From a virus (Duplodnaviria > Heunggongvirae > Uroviricota > Caudoviricetes): a DNA stretch of 31,107 bases. A program made the translations under genes and the position numbers. This document shows, one piece after another, positions 8,313 to 22,715 of this stretch (positions are counted from its first letter, which is position 1; each line of letters opens with the position of its first letter). The DNA lies in IMG/VR virus record IMGVR_UViG_2713896798_000014; one strand, written 5' to 3'. Below the pieces are notes generated by a model, which saw nothing but the letters and a program-made list of their open reading frames with translations, did no database searches and was not told the origin of the DNA.

Positions 8313-8856
8313 GCATCACTGGAAAGTGGAAAAACAGCCTGAGTGGTACGTGAAAGCTGTCAGAAAAACTATCGCGGCGTTGCCGGGGGGTTACGCTGAA
8401 GCTGCTGAGTGGCTGGATGTAACAGAGAACGCTTTATTCAACCGCCTTCGTGCCGATGGCGATCAGTTTTTTCCGTTGGGATGGGCAATGGTTTTACAGC
8501 GTGCGGCTGGTACTCACCACATTGCGGATGCTGTCGCACAGTCTGCTGGTGGGGTGTTTGTATCACTTCCAGAAATTGAGGAAGTAGAGAACGCCGATAT
8601 AAACCAGCGCCTGCTGGAAGTCATCGAACAGATCGGGAGTTACTCAAAGCAGATTCGTTCGGCAATCGAAGATGGGGTAGTGGAGCCACACGAGCAGACA
8701 GCAATTAATGATGAGTTGTATCTGTCAATTTCGAAGCTCCAGGAGCATGCAGCACTGGTCTACAAAATCTTCTGCGCTCCAGAAAAGAGTAACGCCCGCG
8801 AGTGTGCAGCTCCGGGCGTCGTGGCGTTTTGTGTCTGTGGAGAAACTAACGCATGA
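8305..8856 (+). CDS. CII-like phage regulatory protein (family uncertain)
   Basis: GTG start with AGGAGG 6 nt upstream; position after cro; motif ...NRLRADGDQFFPLGWAMVLQRAAGTHHIADAVAQSAGGVFVSLP resembles enterobacterial CII-like regulators as recalled. Confidence 0.45.
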   Translation: MGKHHWKVEKQPEWYVKAVRKTIAALPGGYAEAAEWLDVTENALFNRLRADGDQFFPLGWAMVLQRAAGTHHIADAVAQSAGGVFVSLPEIEEVENADINQRLLEVIEQIGSYSKQIRSAIEDGVVEPHEQTAINDELYLSISKLQEHAALVYKIFCAPEKSNARECAAPGVVAFCVCGETNA

Positions 8857-9455
8857 ACAGTTTAACGGCAAATAACCGTTTGTCGCAACAGCTGGTGGTC
8901 AGTGTCGCTGCACACCTGTTGTTACGGCATGAATGCAGATTACCAAATCACCTGGCTGTAAGTAACCACAGAGAACTTTACCTGACTGTGGGGGGCGAGT
9001 TGTGCAGGAACTTAACCGCTGGTTTCGTGACGGAAGAGGACTTTATGTTCATGTTATTCGTTGGGAGCCAGAAACACAGCGCGTTATCTATCTTCGCAAA
9101 GACTACCCGCATGAGTGCTTTAGTCCTTTGTGGAAATTCAGGCGTGATTTTGTTGAGTGTGAAGGACCACCAGCATATTGACTCTGCAATTCCGGGACGT
9201 TACACTGTTCAGGCACCTTATAAAGCGGGTGCCGGGATTGGCGTCCTGAAATTGTCAACGGCGATGTATGACGCGCCAGCGTCTTTTTTATCGTCCGCAT
9301 TTGCTCACATCCAGATTATGGTGGGCTGGGCGGGGGCACCGAAAGGTGCGCCGGTCTCCGTTGACGCCGGTTACGCCAACCCCGTCCAGTTCACCACCAG
9401 TGAAATTGGCGTTTCCGGTGGTGGAAGTTTTTCACTGTCAACGGAGGCTGCCATC
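8853..9455 (+). other. ambiguous coding segment (two competing frames, G6 tract at junction)
   Basis: Frame of 8853 stays open into the Rha gene but reads as low-complexity; a protein-like 59-codon ORF lies in the -1 frame (9002-9181, ...NRWFRDGRGLYVHVIRWEPETQRVIYLRKDYPHECF...); G6 run at 8990-8995 where the frames meet. Confidence 0.3.
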
Positions 9456-10013
9456 ATGGCTACGATCCAAGCCCTCACTCAACCTGAAATCACCATTGAC
9501 AACGGCCAGGCCGTTACCACTTCTTTGGCTGTTGCCAACTTCTTCTCCAAGCGTCACGACGATGTGCTGAAAAAGATCCGCACTCTGGATTGTTCCCCTG
9601 AGTTTTGTGCCCGCAATTTTGCGGAGACATCGATTTCGGTAAATCAACCGAACGGTGGTACACGCAAGCTCCCTTGCTATCAAATCACACGAGACGGTTT
9701 TGCGTTTCTTGCTATGGGTTTCACGGGTAAACGTGCTGCCCGGTTCAAAGAGGCATACATCAATGCCTTTAACCAGATGGAAAAACTGCTTTCAAAGCCA
9801 TCCACGCTGAGCGATGCCGCAGATAACGCCAGCGTGCTTTACTCCCACCTGTCGGTAATCCACAAGGTCTGGCTGCAGCAGCTTTATCCTATGTTGGCAA
9901 AAGCTGAATCTCCGCTGGCTGTTAGCTTATATGATTATATTAATGATGCTTCGGCGCTGGCCTGCCTCATAAATTTGTCGCTGAACCCTTCAGAGGTAAG
10001 GGGGCGCAAATGA
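9456..10013 (+). CDS. Rha-family phage regulatory protein
   Basis: N-terminus MATIQALTQPEITIDNGQAVTTSLAVANFFSKRHDDVLKKIRTL matches Rha-domain pattern; GGAGG 7 nt upstream of ATG 9456; track reports this as the C-terminus of a 386-aa ORF. Confidence 0.65.
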   Translation: MATIQALTQPEITIDNGQAVTTSLAVANFFSKRHDDVLKKIRTLDCSPEFCARNFAETSISVNQPNGGTRKLPCYQITRDGFAFLAMGFTGKRAARFKEAYINAFNQMEKLLSKPSTLSDAADNASVLYSHLSVIHKVWLQQLYPMLAKAESPLAVSLYDYINDASALACLINLSLNPSEVRGRK

Positions 10014-14009: not shown

Positions 14010-14026
14010 TTTTGTGGAGAAAGTTG

Positions 14027-14398
14027 ATGCGTGATATTCAAATGGTTCTTGAACGTTGGGGGGCATGGGTGGCAAATAATCACGAGGATGTGGAATGGTC
14101 ATCTGTTGCTGCAGGTTTTAAGGGATTAATTCCTTCGAAAGTAAAATCCCGCCCGCAATGTAGCGATGACGATGGCCTGATCATTAGCTCTGCGATGACA
14201 GTTCTTAAGAAAAAGGAACCGTATCAATACGAATTACTGGAAATGTATTATGTGTATGGGGTTACATTACGGGCGTTGGGGGTAAAACTGGGGATATCAC
14301 TTAATCAGGTTGTTATCAGACTGCAGAAAGCTGAAGGGTTTATTGACGGTTGTCTGGCAATGTTGGGGGTATCTTTAGAAATTGATTGTTACATATAG
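14027..14398 (+). CDS. Q: late-gene antiterminator Q-like protein
   Basis: Position immediately upstream of the late region; GGAGA 6 nt upstream of ATG 14027; family assignment from recollection of Q-like sequences. Confidence 0.6.
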   Translation: MRDIQMVLERWGAWVANNHEDVEWSSVAAGFKGLIPSKVKSRPQCSDDDGLIISSAMTVLKKKEPYQYELLEMYYVYGVTLRALGVKLGISLNQVVIRLQKAEGFIDGCLAMLGVSLEIDCYI

Positions 14399-14431
14399 TA
14401 ATAAATTCAATCAAAGTAAATAATCATATTT

Positions 14432-14470
14432 TATAATAACCTCCTGATGATACCTGTTCATTGGGAGGTT
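14432..14470 (+). promoter_or_regulatory. consensus -10 (TATAAT) plus hairpin sequestering the downstream Shine-Dalgarno
   Basis: TATAAT at 14432-14437, 34 nt after the Q stop; perfect 7-bp inverted repeat AACCTCC (14438-14444)/GGAGGTT (14464-14470) whose 3' arm overlaps the GGGAGG ribosome-binding site. Confidence 0.4.
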
Positions 14471-14473
14471 ATT

Positions 14474-15091
14474 ATGGATAAAAATGTAGAGCATGTATTA
14501 GTTGATGCAATTGAAAATAAGCAATCTTTAACAGTCGTTTACTTAGGAGGGAGCCAGCCCGGAACATTAAGGAATATTTCTCCGATTAGTATAAATGGGG
14601 ATAAATTGCGGGCAAGATGCCATAGTTCTGGAGCAGTAAAGGTTTTCAATCTTGGGAAAATACAGTTACCCAGTGACTCCTGCGCGGTATCTATGCACTA
14701 TGGAGATTTAGAAGTTAAAGCTTATGAGACGATGCAGAGCGTAAATGACAACTTTCATGCCCTTTATCCTGAAGGACGATGGGGTGTTGATTTTAATGAG
14801 CATCGCTTTGCTTTATTTGATTTTTTTAAAAACGGGAAACGAAAAAAAACGGCATTTATGGCAATTGAGTTCAGGGAAAGAGATGAAGAGAAAATAATAA
14901 CAGGTGTAACAATTGATATTGGTATATCTGGAACAGTGATTTCTGAGAAGTCCCGAATCCCAAAAAGACGACCATGGGTAGTGGTTGGTCCCGAACACGG
15001 AGAATACAGTACTTATTCAACTTTGGACAAGGCTGCTACAGCGTTTTTTGAGAGGCTTTCGTTGATAGCATCCGGCCTGGAAGATAATTGA
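14474..15091 (+). CDS. hypothetical protein with N-terminal WYL-like domain (cargo gene)
   Basis: 205 aa; N-terminal LTVVYLGGSQPGTLRNISPISINGDKLRARCHSSGAVKVFNLGKI fits the WYL pattern as I recall it; visibly AT-rich; start at 14474 (GGGAGG + 5 nt) preferred over track ATG 14447. Confidence 0.55.
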   Translation: MDKNVEHVLVDAIENKQSLTVVYLGGSQPGTLRNISPISINGDKLRARCHSSGAVKVFNLGKIQLPSDSCAVSMHYGDLEVKAYETMQSVNDNFHALYPEGRWGVDFNEHRFALFDFFKNGKRKKTAFMAIEFRERDEEKIITGVTIDIGISGTVISEKSRIPKRRPWVVVGPEHGEYSTYSTLDKAATAFFERLSLIASGLEDN

Positions 15092-15224
15092 TTTTATGTT
15101 TGGTATTCAGAGTTCTCCGTGCTTAAGAAAGTCAAGATTCTAAAAATACTGAATGAGCTACTTGTGTTATAACAAAAATGCTATTAGTGTGTTAAGAGTG
15201 GTTACTTCGCCACACAACTTAAAC

Positions 15225-15245
15225 CCGCCGCTGAGCGGTTTTTTT
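15225..15245 (+). terminator. candidate weak rho-independent terminator
   Basis: Short GC stem (CCGC/GCGG) followed by T7 run. Confidence 0.35.
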
Positions 15246-15635: not shown

Positions 15636-15666
15636 TTGATGATAATTTACCTTTTGGGGCTATAAT
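15636..15666 (+). promoter_or_regulatory. candidate promoter for the AraC-family gene
   Basis: Perfect TATAAT at 15661-15666, 36 nt before ATG 15702; weak -35 TTGATG with a long spacer; a G7 run lies just upstream (15601-15607). Confidence 0.35.
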
Positions 15667-15701: not shown

Positions 15702-16415
15702 ATGGCTGTTGTCTGTTCAGTTATCATGGTTTGCTCCCCAATTAATATTTTTCTTGAAAAGGATACGTTGTCACTTAAGCCAGGCTCAGTTGTTCTGGCC
15801 ACCAAATGCATCAGGGAGCTTTTCCTTATGCATTATGGCAAAGTTAAAATTGTCGATATAAGCGAATCCGTCGTAAGTCAATATCTGGAAAGTCAGCATA
15901 AGCTGACGAGGACTCGTCTGACTGACATTCCGCTTTACCTGTTGCTGGAACCCAACAATCCTGCGTTGGCTGCGGCTTTAATTACCAGCCAGGGATTTTC
16001 CGGAGAGGCCACGGATATGTTTCTTATGATGGCCTGCCTGTCTCTGTTTGAAACAGATGAACGGATGTCATTGTTTTTAAGTGGATGTTTATCCAGCATA
16101 AGTGCCAAAGTCAGGGCGATAATTCAGACAGATATATCAGCAAGCTGGACGCTTGGTGCGATTGCTCTACAGTTGCATATGAGTGAGAGTTTGTTAAAGA
16201 CAAAACTGAAAAATGAAGGGGGCATGTTCAGTCGCTTGTTGCTGGAAGAGCGGATGCGTGTTGCTGTAAATATGTTATGTTCCCGGCATGGATATGGACA
16301 GGCTATAGCAGAAAAATGCGGTTATTCAAGCAGGTCCTACTTTATTTCTGTATTTCACCGCTATTATGGCTTCCCGCCAGACAGATATGTATCCAGGCAA
16401 GGGCTTGATTATTGA
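15702..16415 (+). CDS. AraC/XylS-family transcriptional regulator
   Basis: C-terminal double HTH (WTLGAIALQLHMSESLLKTKLK...GYSSRSYFISVFHRYYGFPPDRY); AT-rich; start uncertain (15702 or 15828). Confidence 0.75.
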   Translation: MAVVCSVIMVCSPINIFLEKDTLSLKPGSVVLATKCIRELFLMHYGKVKIVDISESVVSQYLESQHKLTRTRLTDIPLYLLLEPNNPALAAALITSQGFSGEATDMFLMMACLSLFETDERMSLFLSGCLSSISAKVRAIIQTDISASWTLGAIALQLHMSESLLKTKLKNEGGMFSRLLLEERMRVAVNMLCSRHGYGQAIAEKCGYSSRSYFISVFHRYYGFPPDRYVSRQGLDY

Positions 16416-16443: not shown

Positions 16444-16519
16444 GGCCCTTTAGCTCAGTGGTGAGAGCGAGCGACTCATAATCGCCAGGTCGCTGGTTCA
16501 AATCCAGCAAGGGCCACCA
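16444..16519 (+). tRNA. tRNA with CAU anticodon (Ile2/Met-type, ileZ-like)
   Basis: 76 nt; acceptor stem GGCCCTT/AAGGGCC, anticodon loop CTCATAA, T-loop GGTTCAAATCC, 3' CCA. Confidence 0.8.
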
Positions 16520-16528
16520 TATTACATA

Positions 16529-16605
16529 CCGCTATTAGCTCATCGGGACAGAGCGCCAGCCTTCGAAGCTGGCTGCGCGGGGTTCAAGTCCCCGATGGCG
16601 GTCCA
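16529..16605 (+). tRNA. tRNA-Arg (anticodon UCG)
   Basis: 77 nt; anticodon stem CCAGC/GCTGG with loop CTTCGAA; T-loop GGTTCAAGTCC; 3' CCA. Confidence 0.8.
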
Positions 16606-16618
16606 TTATCAGCATCAT

Positions 16619-16695
16619 GCGTTGTTAGCTCAGTCGGACAGAGCAATTGCCTTCTAAGCAATCGGTCAGTGGTTAGACTCCACTACAACGCGCCA
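16619..16695 (+). tRNA. tRNA-Arg (anticodon UCU)
   Basis: 77 nt; anticodon stem ATTGC/GCAAT with loop CTTCTAA; 3' CCA. Confidence 0.8.
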
Positions 16696-17296: not shown

Positions 17297-17460
17297 CGGT
17301 AAAACTGCGCCTGGCTGTGGCTGCACTCCTGCTGTTTCTGGTGGTGATGGTGGATCTCACCAGCAGAATCATGTCGGTGCTGGCGGATGGGGTGCTGGTC
17401 TGCGGCATTGTGGTATTGCTGTGGCCGGTGATAAAAAGAAACAGCCTGCATAATGCTTGA
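17293..17460 (+). CDS. small predicted membrane protein (55 aa, two hydrophobic segments)
   Basis: GTG start overlapping the TerB-like stop (GTGA); hand translation VTVKLRLAVAALLLFLVVMVDL...VLVCGIVVLLWPVIKRN; below track cutoff. Confidence 0.4.
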   Translation: MTVKLRLAVAALLLFLVVMVDLTSRIMSVLADGVLVCGIVVLLWPVIKRNSLHNA

Positions 17461-17772
17461 TTTTTTTATTTGCTGTTTATTAAAAACACTTCTGCATGGT
17501 GAATCCCCCTGTGCGGAGGGGCGATCAGCAACCAGGTATATGGGATAATCGCGGATTCAGGTGCTGATACTGAATTCACCGGGAGGCACCCGGCACCATG
17601 CTTTGCCACAAAAGTGTTGTTTCTGTTTTTCTCAAACTATCATCATTATCCCTTTATTTCCGGCTGCGCATGGCGTGGCTTTTTTTACGACCAGCCACTG
17701 GCAGATGGCCATCCTGTAATTTGATTCCGGTTCCGGCTTTTTAACTCTGTTCCTGTACACGGGAGAAATTCG

Positions 17773-19623
17773 ATGTCGATTAAACATTATGATGTTGTCA
17801 GGGCGGCGTCGCCGTCAGACCTTGCGGAAAAGCTGACACATAAACTGAAAGAGGGCTGGCAGCCGTTTGGTAGTCCGGTGGCCATAACCCCTTATACCCT
17901 GATGCAGGCGATTGCAGCAGAAGGTGATGTGGTGGTCAGTGGTGCAACTGAGCCGGAGTGGTACTACGTCATCGTACTGGCCGGGCAGTCCAATGCCATG
18001 GCTTACGGTGAAGGGCTTCCGCTGCCGGATTCATACGATGCTCCGGATCCGCGCATTAAACAGCTGGCGCGCCGCAGTACAGTGACGCCGGGTGGGGCTG
18101 CCTGCAGATATAACGATATTATTCCGGCCGACCATTGCCTGCATGATGTGCAGGATATGAGTACGCTGAATCATCCGAAGGCAGACCTGAGCAAAGGGCA
18201 GTACGGCTGTGTCGGCCAGGGGTTACATATTGCCAAAAAACTGCTCCCGTATATCCCGAATAACGCGGGGATCCTGCTGGTACCATGCTGTCGTGGTGGT
18301 TCGGCATTCACCCAGGGCGCGGAGGGGACATTCAGTGCGGACACGGGGGCCAGCCAGGATTCGGCGCGCTGGGGTGTGGGTAAACCGTTATATCAGGACC
18401 TGATTGCGCGCACCAAAGCTGCATTACAGAAGAACCCGAAAAATGTGTTGCTGGCGGTGTGCTGGATGCAGGGAGAGTTTGACATGAGCGCCGCCACCCA
18501 CGCACAGCAACCTGCGCTGTTTACAGCCATGCTGAAGCAGTTTCGTGCTGACCTCACTGTGTTTAACGCGCAGTGTCATGGTGGCAGTGCTGCAGATGTG
18601 CCGTGGATTTGTGGTGACACGACGTATTACTGGAAAAATACATACGCTACCCAGTACGACACCGTGTACGGCGGGTATAAAAACAGGGAGAGTGAGGGCG
18701 TTTATTTTGTGCCCTTCATGACAGACGGTAACGGCGTTAATACCGCCACTAACGCGCCGGCAGAAGATCCGGATATTCCGGCATCAGGATATTACGGTGC
18801 GGCATCGAGAACGAATGGAAACCAGGTATCATCAAACCGCCCGACACATTTCAGTTCATGGGCGCGCAGGAGCATTATTCCGGATCGTCTGGCAACCGCT
18901 ATTCTGAACGCAGCCGGGCGCACCTCAGCCTTCATCAGTGGTAAGGCACCGGAAATCAAACCCTCGCCCGGCGGCAACACGCCATCGGGTCCGTCTGCAG
19001 ATACGTCCGTTCGCACAATCTCCCTGCTGCCGGCAGCCGGAGAGGCTGCTGCGCAGGGCTGGAGCATTAAGGATGGCGGAATTCAGTTGTCAGATGGTGT
19101 ATTTAAGATCACCAAGCAGAGCAATAAAACCTGGTCCCTGACGCATCCGGTGGATGACGCAATTACCCTGCTGACACAGGGTGGCAGACTGAACTGTAAG
19201 TTCCGCCTGTCAGGCGCACTGACCAACAATCAGTTCGGGCTGGGGATTTATCTGTATACGGATGCTCCCGTTCCTGATGGTGTGGCGATGACGGGTACCG
19301 GTAATCCGTTCCTGATGTCGTACTTCACTCAGACCACTGACGGCAGAGTGAATCTGATGCATCACAGGAAAGCCGGAAACACGAAGCTGGGGGAGTTCGG
19401 CGATTACGGTAACGACTGGCAGACGCTGGAGCTGGTGTTCACCGCCGGCAGTGCCACGGTTACTCCGAAACTGAATGGAGTGGCTGGCCCGGCATTCCAG
19501 GTTATAAAAGACAGTCTGAAAGTGGGGCTGAATGCGCTGACGTTAACTGACATCACAAAAGGTGCCACGTACGGCGTTGAGATAGAAAGTCTGGTGCTGG
19601 AGATAAATACACTGGCAGCATAA
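17773..19623 (+). CDS. nanS: NanS-p-like sialate O-acetylesterase (DUF1737 N-terminus + SGNH/SASA-like domain)
   Basis: N-terminus MSIKHYDVVRAASPSDLAEKLTHKLKEGWQPFGSPV and esterase block VIVLAGQSNAMAYGE; GGGAGA 6 nt upstream; occupies the position of Stx-phage yjhS/nanS-p. Confidence 0.75.
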   Translation: MSIKHYDVVRAASPSDLAEKLTHKLKEGWQPFGSPVAITPYTLMQAIAAEGDVVVSGATEPEWYYVIVLAGQSNAMAYGEGLPLPDSYDAPDPRIKQLARRSTVTPGGAACRYNDIIPADHCLHDVQDMSTLNHPKADLSKGQYGCVGQGLHIAKKLLPYIPNNAGILLVPCCRGGSAFTQGAEGTFSADTGASQDSARWGVGKPLYQDLIARTKAALQKNPKNVLLAVCWMQGEFDMSAATHAQQPALFTAMLKQFRADLTVFNAQCHGGSAADVPWICGDTTYYWKNTYATQYDTVYGGYKNRESEGVYFVPFMTDGNGVNTATNAPAEDPDIPASGYYGAASRTNGNQVSSNRPTHFSSWARRSIIPDRLATAILNAAGRTSAFISGKAPEIKPSPGGNTPSGPSADTSVRTISLLPAAGEAAAQGWSIKDGGIQLSDGVFKITKQSNKTWSLTHPVDDAITLLTQGGRLNCKFRLSGALTNNQFGLGIYLYTDAPVPDGVAMTGTGNPFLMSYFTQTTDGRVNLMHHRKAGNTKLGEFGDYGNDWQTLELVFTAGSATVTPKLNGVAGPAFQVIKDSLKVGLNALTLTDITKGATYGVEIESLVLEINTLAA

Positions 19624-19632
19624 TAAAAAAAC

Positions 19633-19667
19633 AGCCAGTACTGACTTTCGTCGGAGAAGTACTGGCT
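19633..19667 (-). terminator. hairpin oriented as a minus-strand terminator
   Basis: Perfect 10-bp stem AGCCAGTACT/AGTACTGGCT; T-run follows only on the minus strand. Confidence 0.4.
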
Positions 19668-19841
19668 AAGAAGGATAGTTGTGTTTCACATCATTTTCAG
19701 ACTGGACGGTACATTTTCTGACAGATAGTGACGGATGTTGTCAAGATATTGTGTCATTTATAACCTGAATCAGGGGAGGCCGGAATGTTATCTGGCATTT
19801 TTAGCAGAGCCTGAATGCCATAATCACGGCTCCCGGCGTTG

Positions 19842-19872
19842 GCCGCCAGTGGGTGACACTGGCGGCTTTTTT
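19842..19872 (+). terminator. strong rho-independent terminator immediately upstream of the holin gene (tR'-like)
   Basis: Perfect 10-bp stem GCCGCCAGTG/CACTGGCGGC, 5-nt loop, then TTTTTTGTTTTT. Confidence 0.75.
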
Positions 19873-19922
19873 GTTTTTCTTTACTTTCATTTTCTGTCGG
19901 CGGTGACGGAGACATACATCAG

Positions 19923-20129
19923 ATGGAAAAAATCACAACAGGTGTGTCATACACCACGTCAGCGGTGGGGACGGGATACTGGTTACTGCAGCTGCTGGAC
20001 AAAGTCTCTCCGTCCCAGTGGGTGGCGATAGGTGTGCTGGGGAGTCTGCTGTTTGGCCTGTTGACGTATCTTACTAACCTGTATTTCAAAATCAGAGAGG
20101 ACCGTCGTAAGGCGGCGCGGGGAGAGTAA
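19923..20129 (+). CDS. S: class II holin (phage 21 S-type pinholin)
   Basis: 68 aa; ...[47 protein letters not shown] closely resembles S21 as recalled. Confidence 0.8.
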
Positions 20130-20133
20130 AGCG

Positions 20134-20478
20134 ATGAAGAAAAAATACGAACTGGTTGTTAAAGGGATAAATAATTACCCGGATAAGATTACTGTTAGTG
20201 TGGCACTGGAAATTGGTGGGTATCCGTCACTGTTGTTGCCAGATGTGGCGATTAGTCTTGACCGTACTGAAGGAGCCACGCTGGAGTTTTACGAAGCTGA
20301 GGCGAAAAAGCAGGCGAAGCAGTTTTTCATGGATGTTGCTGCCGGGTTATGTGAAGGGGATGGTCCGTTGCCGGAAAAGCGGCCCATCATTTTAGAGGCG
20401 CAGGATGTGTTGATAACCTACAGAGGAAAACTACCGGGAATAATTACTGGTTCTCTGAAGACTCCACCGCTGGCCTGA
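20134..20478 (+). CDS. hypothetical protein inserted between holin and endolysin
   Basis: 114 aa; ribosome-binding site GGGGAGAG inside the holin 3' end; no family recognised. Confidence 0.6.
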   Translation: MKKKYELVVKGINNYPDKITVSVALEIGGYPSLLLPDVAISLDRTEGATLEFYEAEAKKQAKQFFMDVAAGLCEGDGPLPEKRPIILEAQDVLITYRGKLPGIITGSLKTPPLA

Positions 20479-20528
20479 AGACTTAACATATCCAGGGATT
20501 TGAAATCGATAAATCCTGATAAATATCC

Positions 20529-21062
20529 ATGAACGCAAAAATCAGATACGGCCTGTCGGCTGCCGTTCTGGCGCTGATTGGTGCAGGGGCGTCTGCGCCT
20601 GAAATCCTCGACCAGTTTCTGGATGAAAAGGAAGGTAACCACACCACGGCATACCGTGATGGTGCGGGTATCTGGACCATCTGCCGAGGTGCCATCCTGG
20701 TGGATGGTAAACCTGTCGTTCCGGGCATGAAGTTGTCGAAGGAAAAATGCGACCGGGTTAACGCCATTGAGCGTGATAAGGCGCTGGCATGGGTGGAGAA
20801 AAACATCAAAGTGCCGCTGACCGAACCCCAGAAAGCGGGGATCGCGTCATTCTGTCCGTACAACATTGGTCCCGGTAAGTGTTTCCCGTCGACGTTTTAC
20901 AGACGAATTAATGCAGGTGATCGAAAAGGTGCCTGCGAAGCGATTCGCTGGTGGATTAAGGACGGTGGCAGAGACTGCCGTATTCGTTCAAACAACTGTT
21001 ACGGTCAGGTATCCCGTCGTGACCAGGAGAGCGCGCTGGCGTGCTGGGGAATCGACAGATAA
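20529..21062 (+). CDS. R: SAR-type endolysin (lysozyme)
   Basis: N-terminal signal-anchor-release-like hydrophobic segment GLSAAVLALIGAGASA followed by lysozyme-like core (EGNHTTAYRDGAGIWTICRG). Confidence 0.8.
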   Translation: MNAKIRYGLSAAVLALIGAGASAPEILDQFLDEKEGNHTTAYRDGAGIWTICRGAILVDGKPVVPGMKLSKEKCDRVNAIERDKALAWVEKNIKVPLTEPQKAGIASFCPYNIGPGKCFPSTFYRRINAGDRKGACEAIRWWIKDGGRDCRIRSNNCYGQVSRRDQESALACWGIDR

Positions 21063-21332
21063 GAAGAATATTTTGCTGAAAAATGAGGTTTGCTTACATG
21101 GACGGATAACACGAAATCCTGCAAATTTGCAAAATGTAAGTGAATAAAGTCAAAACAGTTGTTTAACACTCAGGCACCGTAATGATGCCTTTGTCATTTC
21201 TGCGCATCTCACGCGCATCTCACAACACAGAACCTTTCAGGATGACCCTTGAGGATACCGGTTTGGCTGTCGGTGCCTTTCTGTGGACTGGATTCCTGTG
21301 AGACAAGGTTCATCACTAAAAGGAAATAACCG

Positions 21333-21902
21333 ATGAATATGATGGCCGTGCCGTTTCACGGCAACTCTCTTTATGTAGTTAACCATAATGGCGAACCATA
21401 CGTTCCCATGAAACCTGTCGTTGCGGGGATGGGGCTGGCCTGGCAATCACAGTTGGCTAAGTTAAGACAGCGTTTTGCGTCAACTATAACGGAAATCGTT
21501 ATGGTTGCTGAGGATGGGAAACAACGCAATATGGTGTCCATGCCACTTCGAAAACTTGCCGGCTGGCTACAAACCATTAATCCCAACAAAGTAAAACCCG
21601 AAATCCGCGATAAGGTCATCCGGTATCAGGAAGAGTGCGACGATGTTCTTTACGAGTACTGGACGAAGGGTTTTGTCGTTAATCCCCGTAAAATGAGCGT
21701 GATGGAAGAACTCAACCAGGCTTGTGCTGACATGAAACGGGATAAAAATATTGCCAGTGTGTTTGCTACCGGGCTGAATGAGTGGAAACAGGTTAAAGCC
21801 GCGCATGTATCAAAAATCCGTACGCTGGTAAATGAAGCGAATATGCTGATTGATTTTGTCCTGGCTGATACAGGCAAAGGGAAAATAACAAAGGCGGATT
21901 GA
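21333..21902 (+). CDS. antirepressor-like phage protein (family tentative)
   Basis: N-terminus VPFHGNSLYVVNHNGEPYVPMKPVVAGMGLAW resembles antirepressor N-terminal domains; located between endolysin and Rz as in some Stx phages. Confidence 0.45.
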   Translation: MNMMAVPFHGNSLYVVNHNGEPYVPMKPVVAGMGLAWQSQLAKLRQRFASTITEIVMVAEDGKQRNMVSMPLRKLAGWLQTINPNKVKPEIRDKVIRYQEECDDVLYEYWTKGFVVNPRKMSVMEELNQACADMKRDKNIASVFATGLNEWKQVKAAHVSKIRTLVNEANMLIDFVLADTGKGKITKAD

Positions 21903-22048
21903 TGGGGTGGCTAATGATATCAGATAAACTCATAACGCTGGTGAAGAGCCTCTGTGTACTTGTCGGCATTTCATTTTTAGTCATGCTGGTTGCCATTTTC
22001 TTTTCCACCGCCTGGCGAGTCCTGACGTTATCGGGACTGGTGGGGTGA
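21902..22048 (+). CDS. possible small membrane protein (48 aa)
   Basis: ATG overlaps upstream stop; hydrophobic core [18 protein letters not shown]; below track cutoff. Confidence 0.3.
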
Positions 22049-22055
22049 AAGAGAG

Positions 22056-22523
22056 ATGAACCGTGTTCTGTGTGTGGTGATTATTGTCCTGGCGGTTGGC
22101 TGTGGTGCGCTGTGGCTGGCAACAAACCATTACCGTGACAACGCGCTCACCTACAAAGCGCAGCGCGATAAAAAAGCCAGAGAGCTGGAACAGGCGAATG
22201 CAACCATTACTGATATGCAGCAGCGCCAGCGTGATGTTGCTGCACTTGATGCCAGATACTCGAGGGAATTAGCCGATGCGAGAGCTGAAAATGAAACTCT
22301 GCGCGCTGATGTTGCCGCTGGTCGTAAGCGCCTGCGCATCAACGCCAACTGTCCCGGTACCGTGCGTGAAGCCACCGGCACCGCCCGCGTGGATAATGCA
22401 ACCGGCCCCCAACTGGCAGACACCGTTACACGGGATTATTTCACCCTCAGAGAGCGGCTGATGACGATGCAGAAGCAACTGGAAGGGGCACAGGACTATA
22501 TCCGCACTCAGTGCCTGAACTAA
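22056..22523 (+). CDS. Rz: Rz i-spanin
   Basis: N-terminal transmembrane segment then coiled-coil-like Ala/Arg/Glu-rich periplasmic domain; Rz1 embedded in +1 frame. Confidence 0.8.
22276..22461 (+). CDS. Rz1: Rz1 o-spanin lipoprotein (embedded in Rz)
   Basis: Lipobox LVVSAC after a short signal peptide, proline-rich mature region; fully nested within Rz. Confidence 0.75.
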
Positions 22524-22715
22524 GTTTTGCTGATGCGCCGTATCGTCGCTGTATTCCCTCATTAACAGAGACCGCAGCCCGACAGGGAGACTCCTCTGCG
22601 CGAGTGTGCGGGGATAATCAAAAACGATACACACCGGGGTTTACCGCGTTAACGGAGCGCGGCGTTGTCCCCTCATAGTCGCCTGTCCGGTACGATGGTG
22701 GAAGAAACCGAACGT

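Follow-up and report, generated by a model that had tools for sequence, protein, structure and literature searches.

A predicted intrinsic terminator between a PasA-family sRNA gene and the pinholin gene of a lambdoid prophage

Among the closest described systems to the locus studied here are the PR'-tR' leaders of lambdoid phages and the prophage loci that encode the sRNAs PasA and PasC. In a Q-dependent cassette the Q gene is directly followed by PR', the QBE, a sigma-dependent pause element, and a terminator, and Q-loaded polymerase passes terminators processively over long distances (bioRxiv 10.1101/651190). In the Stx phages of Sakai, StxS comes from the PR' leader, and tR' is the terminator element that makes up the 3' portion of this leader (Sy 2020; PMC7547250).

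PasA was described in EPEC E2348/69 on the minus strand (743499 to 743415), between the esterase gene E2348C_0688 and the holin gene E2348C_0689 in the orientation '> < >', with PasC in the equivalent place of another prophage (Pearl Mizrahi 2021; PMC8550237). The EHEC homologues of PasA and PasC are EcOnc51/52 (Tree 2014; PMC4104026), and expression and Hfq dependence have been established for the E2348/69 copies of PasA and PasC and for EcOnc51/52 in Sakai. A preprint refers to the arrangement as 'esterase-PasA-holin-lysozyme', with YYZ-2008 (PasA) and 2B8 (PasC) as representative phages (Zhu, Shabalina & Storz, bioRxiv 2026). Neither the region upstream of the sRNA nor a plus-strand terminator is discussed in these two PasA/PasC papers (PMC8550237; Zhu 2026 preprint).

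Here, we propose that the interval between the PasA-family gene and the pinholin gene carries a plus-strand intrinsic terminator, and consider it likely that this terminator ends an esterase accessory unit, insulates the lysis genes in the lysogen, and is overridden by Q-modified polymerase. Termination in vivo, Q-dependent read-through, and the assignment of a nearby promoter to PasA are what we infer from the sequence. The feature itself is already known, in that a 99% identical copy is annotated and the locus has been described for its antisense sRNA; mildly new are the promoter assignment for PasA/PasC and the possible divergent transcription from the same core. The value of the work lies mainly in annotation, as it marks where the lysis cassette of a large EHEC/EPEC prophage family would be insulated from accessory-gene transcription.

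The locus and its relatives

The window, by which we mean the whole 31,107-nucleotide stretch that was analysed, is the right arm of a lambdoid prophage of EHEC/EPEC type, and over positions 17310-22708 it shares ~97% identity with Sp12, a prophage of E. coli O157:H7 Sakai. Its Q protein is 59% identical to that of H-19B, and the pinholin gene is the first gene downstream of the predicted terminator (Table 1).

Table 1. Features of the prophage arm around the pinholin gene (window coordinates)
Feature	Position	Strand	Description
DUF968/HNH gene			upstream of Q, within the 12-21 kb region
Antiterminator gene Q	14012-14398	+	Pfam PF06530, E = 5e-48; Q21/933W family; matches PDB Q21 6p18
214-aa ORF	14475-15091		no family; between Q and the StxS/tR'-like element
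StxS/tR'-like element	15191-15245	+	conserved GTTAAGAGTGGTTAC box, hairpin 15227-15239 (CCCGCCG...CGG), T7 run
AraC-type regulator gene			after the 214-aa ORF in the gene order of the 12-21 kb region
tRNA-Met, tRNA-Arg, tRNA-Arg	16444-16695		
TerB-domain ORF			between the tRNAs and STnc100 RNA
STnc100 RNA	17468-17645		upstream of the esterase gene
SASA-family sialate O-acetylesterase gene (NanS-p type)	17773-19623	+	Pfam DUF1737, SASA, DUF6645
PasA-family sRNA gene	19625-19709	-	homologue of PasA, PasC, EcOnc51/52; alignments to E2348/69 PasA and PasC
Putative Pas-type sRNA promoter	19713-19744	-	perfect -35 TTGACA; weak -10 candidates
Promoter-like element	19738-19766	+	TTGTCA (19738-19743) with TATAAC (19759-19764) or TAACCT (19761-19766)
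Hypervariable poly-G tract	19773-19781		left recombination boundary of the hairpin-terminator-holin unit
Long imperfect hairpin	19774-19834	+	directly 5' of the terminator; RNA fold; C/T variant at 19780 gives U·G on the plus strand
Predicted intrinsic terminator	19841-19878	+	stem-loop 19841-19867 (GGCCGCCAGTG-GGTGA-CACTGGCGGCT), then T6-G-T5 (19867-19878)
Class II (S21-type) pinholin gene	19923-20129	+	Pfam PF04971, E = 9e-33; RBS GGAG 19908-19911
DUF1327 ORF, endolysin gene, antirepressor-like gene			downstream of the pinholin gene, in that order

As in the PasA/PasC locus of EPEC E2348/69, the gene order is esterase, sRNA, holin, and a PasD/STnc100 relative lies upstream of the esterase gene. 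Window positions 19709 to 19625 align end to end with PasA, the identity being 74% to E2348/69 PasA, 80% to the H-19B copy, and 62% to PasC, and both YYZ-2008 and 2B8 match the window. In its location, strand, homology, and 3' stem-loop with U-tract, this minus-strand feature has the properties of a Pas sRNA and is predicted to be one. Judged by these alignments, the DNA between the stop codon of the esterase gene and the start of the holin gene corresponds to a published sRNA locus. PasA as published is on the opposite strand and falls just outside 19738-19872; that interval sits immediately upstream of the sRNA gene (in the sense of the sRNA), covers the remaining intergenic region, and comprises the upstream (promoter) region of the sRNA together with the plus-strand terminator.

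In phage 434 (OL657226, 45673-45709) the homologous hairpin is annotated as 'terminator'. It lies in the same place, with a SASA esterase gene on one side and a class II holin gene on the other, and shows no material difference, the block from the sRNA gene to the holin gene being 99% identical over 19710-19922. The annotation appears to be computational, and we found no experiment on the 434 terminator.

Across the window, PasA, PasC, 434, H-19B, and 2B8, the sRNA body is 61-80% identical, against 96-100% for the block 19710-19922. At an identity of at least 95%, the block is carried by 699 of the 5,426 complete E. coli genomes searched (~13%), at 2,861 places in all, with a median of 4 and a maximum of 9 copies per E. 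coli genome, and a class II holin gene follows in every copy. It is also carried by H-19B, YYZ-2008, and Stx1a phages. A blastn search of 50,697 phage records returned 28 near-identical copies of the block and no more distant relatives, and in a one-genome-per-species set the block was found at 1 of 65 holin loci, in E. albertii. In view of the up to nine copies, the multicopy prophage sRNA HnrS (EcOnc10-12) was weighed as a candidate identity and rejected, as it lies ~3.2 kb deeper in the late genes and the window has no copy of it.

A set of 116 IMG/VR copies shows where the block does vary. Its G-tract has many length and sequence variants (GGGGAGGCC, GGGGTTGGTC, GGGGGGGGAGCC, and others), and the remaining block is nearly invariant. 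At one locus (L180) a different upstream sequence is joined at this tract, and three recombinant loci, in which the left side has been replaced or deleted, retain the terminator and the holin gene without the promoter and PasA.

Anatomy and probable role of the pre-holin terminator

A preliminary description of this DNA had noted a perfect 10-bp, GC-rich hairpin with a T-run before the holin gene, and this part of it is fully borne out: the structure is present, specific to the plus strand, and well above chance. The arms GCCGCCAGTG and CACTGGCGGC (19842-19851 and 19857-19866) form 10 perfect base pairs, 8 of them G-C, which a G·U pair (G19841-T19867) lengthens to 11 pairs around a loop of 5 nt. 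The T-run is directly 3' of the hairpin and starts 56 nt upstream of the holin ATG (19923). Among the 24 terminator-like sites found by a terminator scan of 13-21.5 kb, the pre-holin hairpin ranks first (11 pairs, 8 G-C), and RNA folding gives -24 kcal/mol for the hairpin region and a dG of about -20 to -23 kcal/mol for the stem-loop. Positions 19841-19878 combine a G+C-rich stem-loop with a U-tract on the transcribed strand, as an intrinsic terminator does, and inspection of the reverse complement found no T-run on the opposite strand. By these features, the pre-holin hairpin has the anatomy expected of a strong, unidirectional intrinsic terminator. A literature search with the hairpin sequence returned no paper.

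The natural variants point in the same direction. In the 116 IMG/VR copies the stem varies between C and T at 19846 and 19866, and these variants retain pairing, as G·U, on the plus strand only; on the minus strand they would give A·C mismatches. The mean dG of the hairpin over the 116 copies is -20.0 kcal/mol on the plus strand versus -12.9 on the minus strand. The stem of the window copy is wholly Watson-Crick (C at 19846), and 113 of the 116 copies have a U·G pair. This variation appears to support a function in the plus-strand RNA, although every change at 19846, 19866, and 19780 (the last in the upstream hairpin) is C-to-T, and mutational bias instead of selection could account for three such changes out of three.

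The long imperfect hairpin that precedes the terminator would belong either to the 3'UTR of the esterase mRNA or to a putative plus-strand RNA of ~100 nt, to which we return below. The RNA fold of 19765-19875 has a dG of -48.2 kcal/mol (z = -3.9 versus shuffles).

What might the role of a terminator be at this place? The terminator scan found no strong plus-strand terminator elsewhere in 17680-19841, and rightward transcripts of the esterase gene would be expected to end at 19841-19878. The PasA-type gene that they cross has a minus-strand terminator of its own, predicted by folding as a hairpin at 19633-19667 with a U7 tail (19625-19631). On inspection, the plus-strand version of this hairpin has no T-run, and it should therefore not stop rightward transcription. 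In EPEC RIL-seq data (PMC8550237), plus-strand RNA of the region starts at 743494-743512, equivalent to window 19704-19722 and upstream of any local plus-strand promoter, which indicates that rightward RNA enters the region from upstream; in the chimeras this RNA is the first (target-type) partner. In RNA-seq of uninduced EPEC, the esterase has a baseMean of 102, compared with 3.5 for the holin, 3.2 for the lysozyme, and 1.0 for the next gene, a fall per nucleotide of ~3-fold at the holin and 8-24-fold at the next genes, with very low counts. Genes of the nanS-p type are expressed basally, and mitomycin C raises their expression by 1-2.4 logs (PMC10462455).

In the mechanism we favour, 19841-19878 would close an accessory ('moron') segment whose last gene is that of the sialate esterase. 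Rightward RNA from the esterase region would, in the lysogen, cross the antisense PasA-type gene, whose terminator would act only leftwards, and would halt at the 19841-19878 hairpin, so that the pinholin and endolysin genes, 50 nt downstream, stay silent. On induction, polymerase modified by Q further upstream, in a region that in the window holds both the Q gene and the StxS/tR'-like element, would ignore this and all other terminators of the late operon, and the lysis genes would be expressed. The hairpin probably shields the lysis genes of the prophage from upstream transcription, and reading through it most plausibly needs Q-modified polymerase.

A similar layout is known from morons and the 'convergent sRNAs' at their insertion sites (Juhala 2000, cited in Tree 2014; PMC4104026). 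There, an accessory gene likewise lies in the late operon, and an antisense Hfq-binding sRNA is likewise followed by a sense terminator before the next conserved phage gene. The Sp5 case that has been described has two sRNAs that meet end to end, whereas in the window the sense transcript would cross the whole antisense sRNA gene.

Other loci of this type also have a terminator in this position. Of 61 species-level class II holin loci, 32 have a terminator at most 250 nt before the holin gene, the background rate elsewhere on the same strand being 0.15 per 250 nt, and unrelated hairpin/T-run sites stand 40-126 nt before the holin gene in 933W, cdtI, Lambda_2G7a, and PhiR26_1. From these comparisons, a terminator at the pre-holin place is a recurrent design in this type of late operon. 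Where Q adjoins the holin gene upstream, the pre-holin terminator is presumably tR', and in PhiR26_1 it is the StxS-like element itself. In loci with inserted accessory genes, as in the window, the pre-holin slot is filled by a different terminator.

The hexamers upstream of the terminator

The preliminary description had also proposed a promoter-like element upstream of the hairpin. Its TTGTCA (19738-19743) and TATAAC (19759-19764) are indeed present, with a spacer of 15 nt, but as a promoter-like element this register is no better than chance. It scores 6.75 bits in a simple weight-matrix scan for sigma-70 sites, a value that 314 sites in the window match or beat and at which ~1 site is expected per 150 nt per strand; TATAAC has C in place of the conserved T at its final position, the spacer is only 15 nt, and a consensus promoter scan did not report the TTGTCA-15-TATAAC register. 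With the -10 shifted 2 nt to the right, TTGTCA-17-TAACCT scores 11.2 bits and ranks 13 in the window, both strands included, and ~0.05 sites of this score class are expected per 150 nt. All 29 bp of 19738-19766 are invariant in the 116 IMG/VR copies, within an invariant stretch of 34 bp (19736-19769). Because the entire block is invariant, the conservation of the hexamers is uninformative.

Read on the bottom strand, the top-strand TTGTCAA becomes TTGACAA, with a perfect -35 TTGACA running from 19744 to 19739. The 5' ends published for PasA (743499) and PasC (1290909) were mapped independently, and in the alignments each corresponds to window 19709. The distance from the final base of TTGACA to 19709 is exactly 30 nt, which is canonical for a +1. 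On the Pas side, the variable sites in the 116 copies (19712, 19726, 19732, and 19735) fall in the discriminator and spacer, and the hexamers are invariant. Because the PasA and PasC 5' ends map 30 nt away and the hexamers are invariant, we assign this -35 to the leftward Pas promoter with moderate confidence. The leftward -10 candidates, TGT-CAGAAA (19723 to 19715, 18-nt spacer) and GAAAAT (19718 to 19713, 20-nt spacer), are both poor. Judged from the sequence, a leftward PasA-type sRNA promoter is more likely here than a second Q-controlled late promoter; we reject the promoter-like hexamers as a second PR' and consider that they most likely hold the -35 of a leftward PasA-family promoter instead.

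This gives a testable promoter assignment for the published PasA and PasC. It contrasts with the preprint, in which the 5' end of PasA is generated by cleavage/processing (Zhu, Shabalina & Storz, bioRxiv 2026). The longer form of PasA in table S6 of the RIL-seq study is extended at its 3' end, not at its 5' end (PMC8550237).

The same region contains the repeat TTGT-N7-TTGT (19738/19749), which was considered as a CII-binding site and rejected, since its spacing is wrong in comparison with TTGY-N6-TTGY and 434 has no such annotation. A direct repeat, CATTTTC[AT]G[AT]C, occurs at 19692, 19712, and 19888; we found no meaning for it.

The place of Q action and alternative explanations

A terminator directly before the holin gene raises the question of where Q acts in this prophage. 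A pR'-like -10 just after Q, to which the preliminary description had pointed, exists as TATAAT at 14432-14437, 34 nt past the Q stop. Further on, 15191-15245 can be aligned both to the leaders found after Q in H-19B and Stx2_14040 and to the element of PhiR26_1. It is homologous to the H-19B/933W tR'/StxS element, the leader/terminator located downstream of Q in H-19B and in Stx2 phages with the Q21 allele. By this homology, the StxS/tR'-like element is likely to be the Q-regulated terminator of this prophage. The 214-aa ORF is inserted between Q and this element. One should look for the Q-action site around the StxS/tR'-like element (~15.2 kb) instead of at the holin gene, and on the comparisons that follow the holin-proximal block is not the PR' candidate.

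The preliminary description had likened the block to a short terminated leader of pR'/tR' type and had treated it as a candidate Q-action site. Such a PR'/qut-tR' cassette would consist of a constitutive promoter with a short terminated leader, at which Q loads before the holin gene and turns the lysis genes on, and we regard it as highly improbable, even though part of the layout is alike. As in lambdoid PR'-tR' leaders (lambda 6S RNA; StxS, PMC7547250), a promoter-like site stands a short distance before a terminator that Q-modified polymerase must override, ahead of late/lysis genes: the hexamers precede a strong terminator by ~100 nt, at the customary position just before the holin gene, and 19841-19878 follows ~100 nt from the predicted start. 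Moreover, tR' is the terminator before S in simple lambdoid phages, and some loci have Q 400-700 nt from the holin gene with a terminator between. The block, however, never adjoins Q, as the unit of a Q-dependent cassette does. In the window, 5.3 kb separate the end of Q (14398) from the start of the element (19738), and at the 23 IMG/VR loci where a Q could be recognised the block lies 2.2-6.4 kb from Q. Nor does the block change with the Q family, as would be expected of a QBE. A 96-99% identical block is found after Qs of the Q82-like type, in 434 and at 16 IMG/VR loci, and after Qs of the Q21/933W family, in the window, in H-19B, and at 7 IMG/VR loci. BLASTP detects no similarity between these two Q families (434 versus the window), and they need different binding elements; a block shared by unrelated Q families is therefore not a Q-specific loading site. 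Sensitive blastn found no homology of the block to characterised leaders (H-19B/933W StxS and others), and blastn found no similarity to the Q-S intergenic regions of 65 species-level loci. A relic of a PR'-tR' of phage 21/82 type was also considered and rejected, with no blastn similarity in the 50,697 phage records or the 65 species-level holin loci.

By sequence scan, a plus-strand sigma-70 promoter is at chance in the 15-nt register and ranks 13 in the 17-nt register, and its -35 is better explained as that of PasA. The predicted start is ~19772, so that the initial transcribed region is the hypervariable G-tract, with no good pause element; the sole -10-like hexamer after the predicted start, TGTTAT at ~+15 to +20, lacks the conserved A at position 2. 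H-19B has the block, yet the Q-dependent promoter of H-19B and of its Sakai relatives is placed beside Q in PMC7547250 and the work it cites, and the window has its StxS/tR'-like element elsewhere. In lying away from Q, in its indifference to Q family, and in having neither a recognisable pause element nor leader homology, the block differs from PR'-tR' leaders, and it resembles tR' by position only.

Against the preferred reading, that of a terminator insulating the lysis genes, it may also be argued that the hairpin has no present role for these genes and is only a stabiliser of the esterase mRNA 3' end, or a recent mosaic module that is passively inherited. Identity is at least 95% among all copies, the block is restricted to E. 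coli and E. albertii, and with the block at 1 of 65 species-level loci its conservation could reflect recent spread, not selection. This explanation is nevertheless improbable: before other holin genes, unrelated sequences supply a terminator at the same place ~3.5 times as often as the background predicts, the variants tend to preserve the plus-strand stem, and deletion and recombinant derivatives retain the terminator. Less easily dismissed, but in our judgement still unlikely, is an independent gene for a ~100-nt plus-strand RNA, transcribed from TTGTCA-17-TAACCT, with its start at ~19772-19773 and its end at ~19872. Such an RNA would diverge back-to-back from the PasA promoter, with overlapping -35 hexamers, and it would be compatible with the function of the terminator, coexisting with it and not replacing it. 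In its favour are the rank of the 17-nt register among the sigma-70-like sites of the window (13, with 0.05 expected per 150 nt), the invariance of 19736-19769 in 116 copies, a predicted fold far better than shuffles (z = -3.9), and the presence of plus-strand intergenic RNA in 798 RIL-seq chimeric fragments in one condition. The invariance loses its weight, however, with the whole block being invariant, and the RIL-seq fragments begin upstream of the putative start and are the first partner in 97% of chimeras, unlike terminator-bearing Hfq sRNAs. Pearl Mizrahi et al. (PMC8550237) report no plus-strand sRNA at this locus, and the Sakai Hfq-CRAC catalogue has no sense-strand peak beside the Sp12 holin gene, in a region ~97% identical to the window. 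Rfam gave nothing on the plus strand for a pre-holin RNA, either at the gathering threshold over the whole window or in a permissive search of 19600-19950 (no match even at E <= 10), the only weak matches in 19600-19950 being to the minus-strand PasA terminator. The recombinants, moreover, retain the terminator without the promoter.

A little less likely again is the fuller version in which the 29-bp core 19738-19766 is a bidirectional sRNA promoter, serving the PasA-family sRNA to the left and an undescribed, highly structured ~100-nt RNA to the right. If this were true, the core would give rise to an 'orphan 6S-like' prophage RNA that ~13% of complete E. coli genomes encode, some of them as many as nine times, and slippage in the 5' G-tract could vary the level or structure of the ~100-nt RNA. 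Were the rightward promoter active, the EHEC/EPEC repertoire of prophage RNAs would gain a further multicopy member.

Two small ORFs, one of 98 aa on the plus strand (19735-20031) and one of 53 aa on the minus strand (19754-19915), were treated as spurious, the invariance of the block giving no evidence either way. Part of the 53-aa ORF is called 'hypothetical protein' in phage 2B8.

The StxS/tR'-like element and the segment after Q

Here, we propose that the StxS/tR'-like element located between Q and the AraC-family regulator gene is likely the Q-regulated terminator of this prophage. The element shares homology with the leaders found after Q in H-19B and in Stx2 phages with the Q21 allele. 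The segment separating it from Q is absent from related Stx2 phages. Its 214-aa ORF, which had no match in Pfam, probably starts at 14475, after GGGAGG, with an inverted repeat (14435-14444 / 14463-14473) flanking its ribosome-binding site; the segment also contains a TATAAT (14432-14437).

The placement of such elements was also noted in other phages. In PhiR26_1, a reverse-oriented ompD moron precedes the StxS/tR'-like element (2820-2875 of compared locus L013), so that some 1.7 kb separate this element from Q; the distance from the element to the downstream holin gene is 126 nt. In the Sakai Stx phages, PR' starts 258 nt upstream of tR' (Sy et al., PMC7547250). Applying this distance to H-19B (locus L002) puts the PR' start at about 1591, inside the annotated Q ORF (1344-1778) and not after Q.

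Coordinates of features in the window
Feature	Position	Strand	Remarks
isrK	9213-9289	+	Rfam match, 62 bits
C4 antisense RNA	9314-9401	+	Rfam match, 81 bits
Segment between Q and tR'-like element	14399-15190		~0.75 kb; carries 214-aa ORF
StxS/tR'-like element	15191-15245	+	GTTAAGAGTGGTTAC box, hairpin and T7
Sigma-70-like site, ATGATA-16-TATAAT	15639-15666	+	10/12 matches
AraC-family regulator gene	15702-16415	+	Late region, downstream of sigma-70-like site
STnc100 match	17468-17645	+	Rfam RF02076, 105 bits; directly upstream of esterase gene
Terminator-like site	17662-17680	+	Beside STnc100 match
PasA-family sRNA copy	19625-19709	-	Own leftward-only terminator (hairpin 19633-19667 + U7)
IS009	27841-28039	+	Full-length Rfam match, 214 bits; structural-gene region

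Regulator gene and small RNAs

The sigma-70-like site preceding the AraC-family gene was the top-scoring one in a scan of 13-21.5 kb, and the gene is a candidate lysogen-expressed moron. Further downstream, the STnc100 match occupies the position of PasD2 in E2348/69, and PasD is related to STnc100 according to Zhu et al. The isrK and C4 antisense RNA matches adjoin each other, within or overlapping an ORF at 8853-10013.

The seed-equivalent of the PasA copy, GCCAGUACUU, differs at 2 positions from PasA of E2348/69 but, with G·U pairs included, could still pair with the CUGGUGCUGG motif at the 3' end of the esterase gene (19592-19601). The sequence CATTTTC[AT]G[AT]C occurs three times on the + strand, with two copies (19692 and 19712, spaced 20 nt) at the 5' end/promoter of PasA and the third (19888) within the holin 5'UTR.

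Variation around the pre-holin terminator

Across 116 IMG/VR copies of the terminator block that are otherwise almost identical, the poly-G tract at 19773-19781 is hypervariable, both in its length and in its sequence. The tract is also a recombination junction, for example in compared locus L180. In the PasC prophage of E2348/69, PP5 (locus L006, ~2300-2470), ISEc13 is inserted right behind the T-run of the pre-holin terminator, an insertion that removes the holin.
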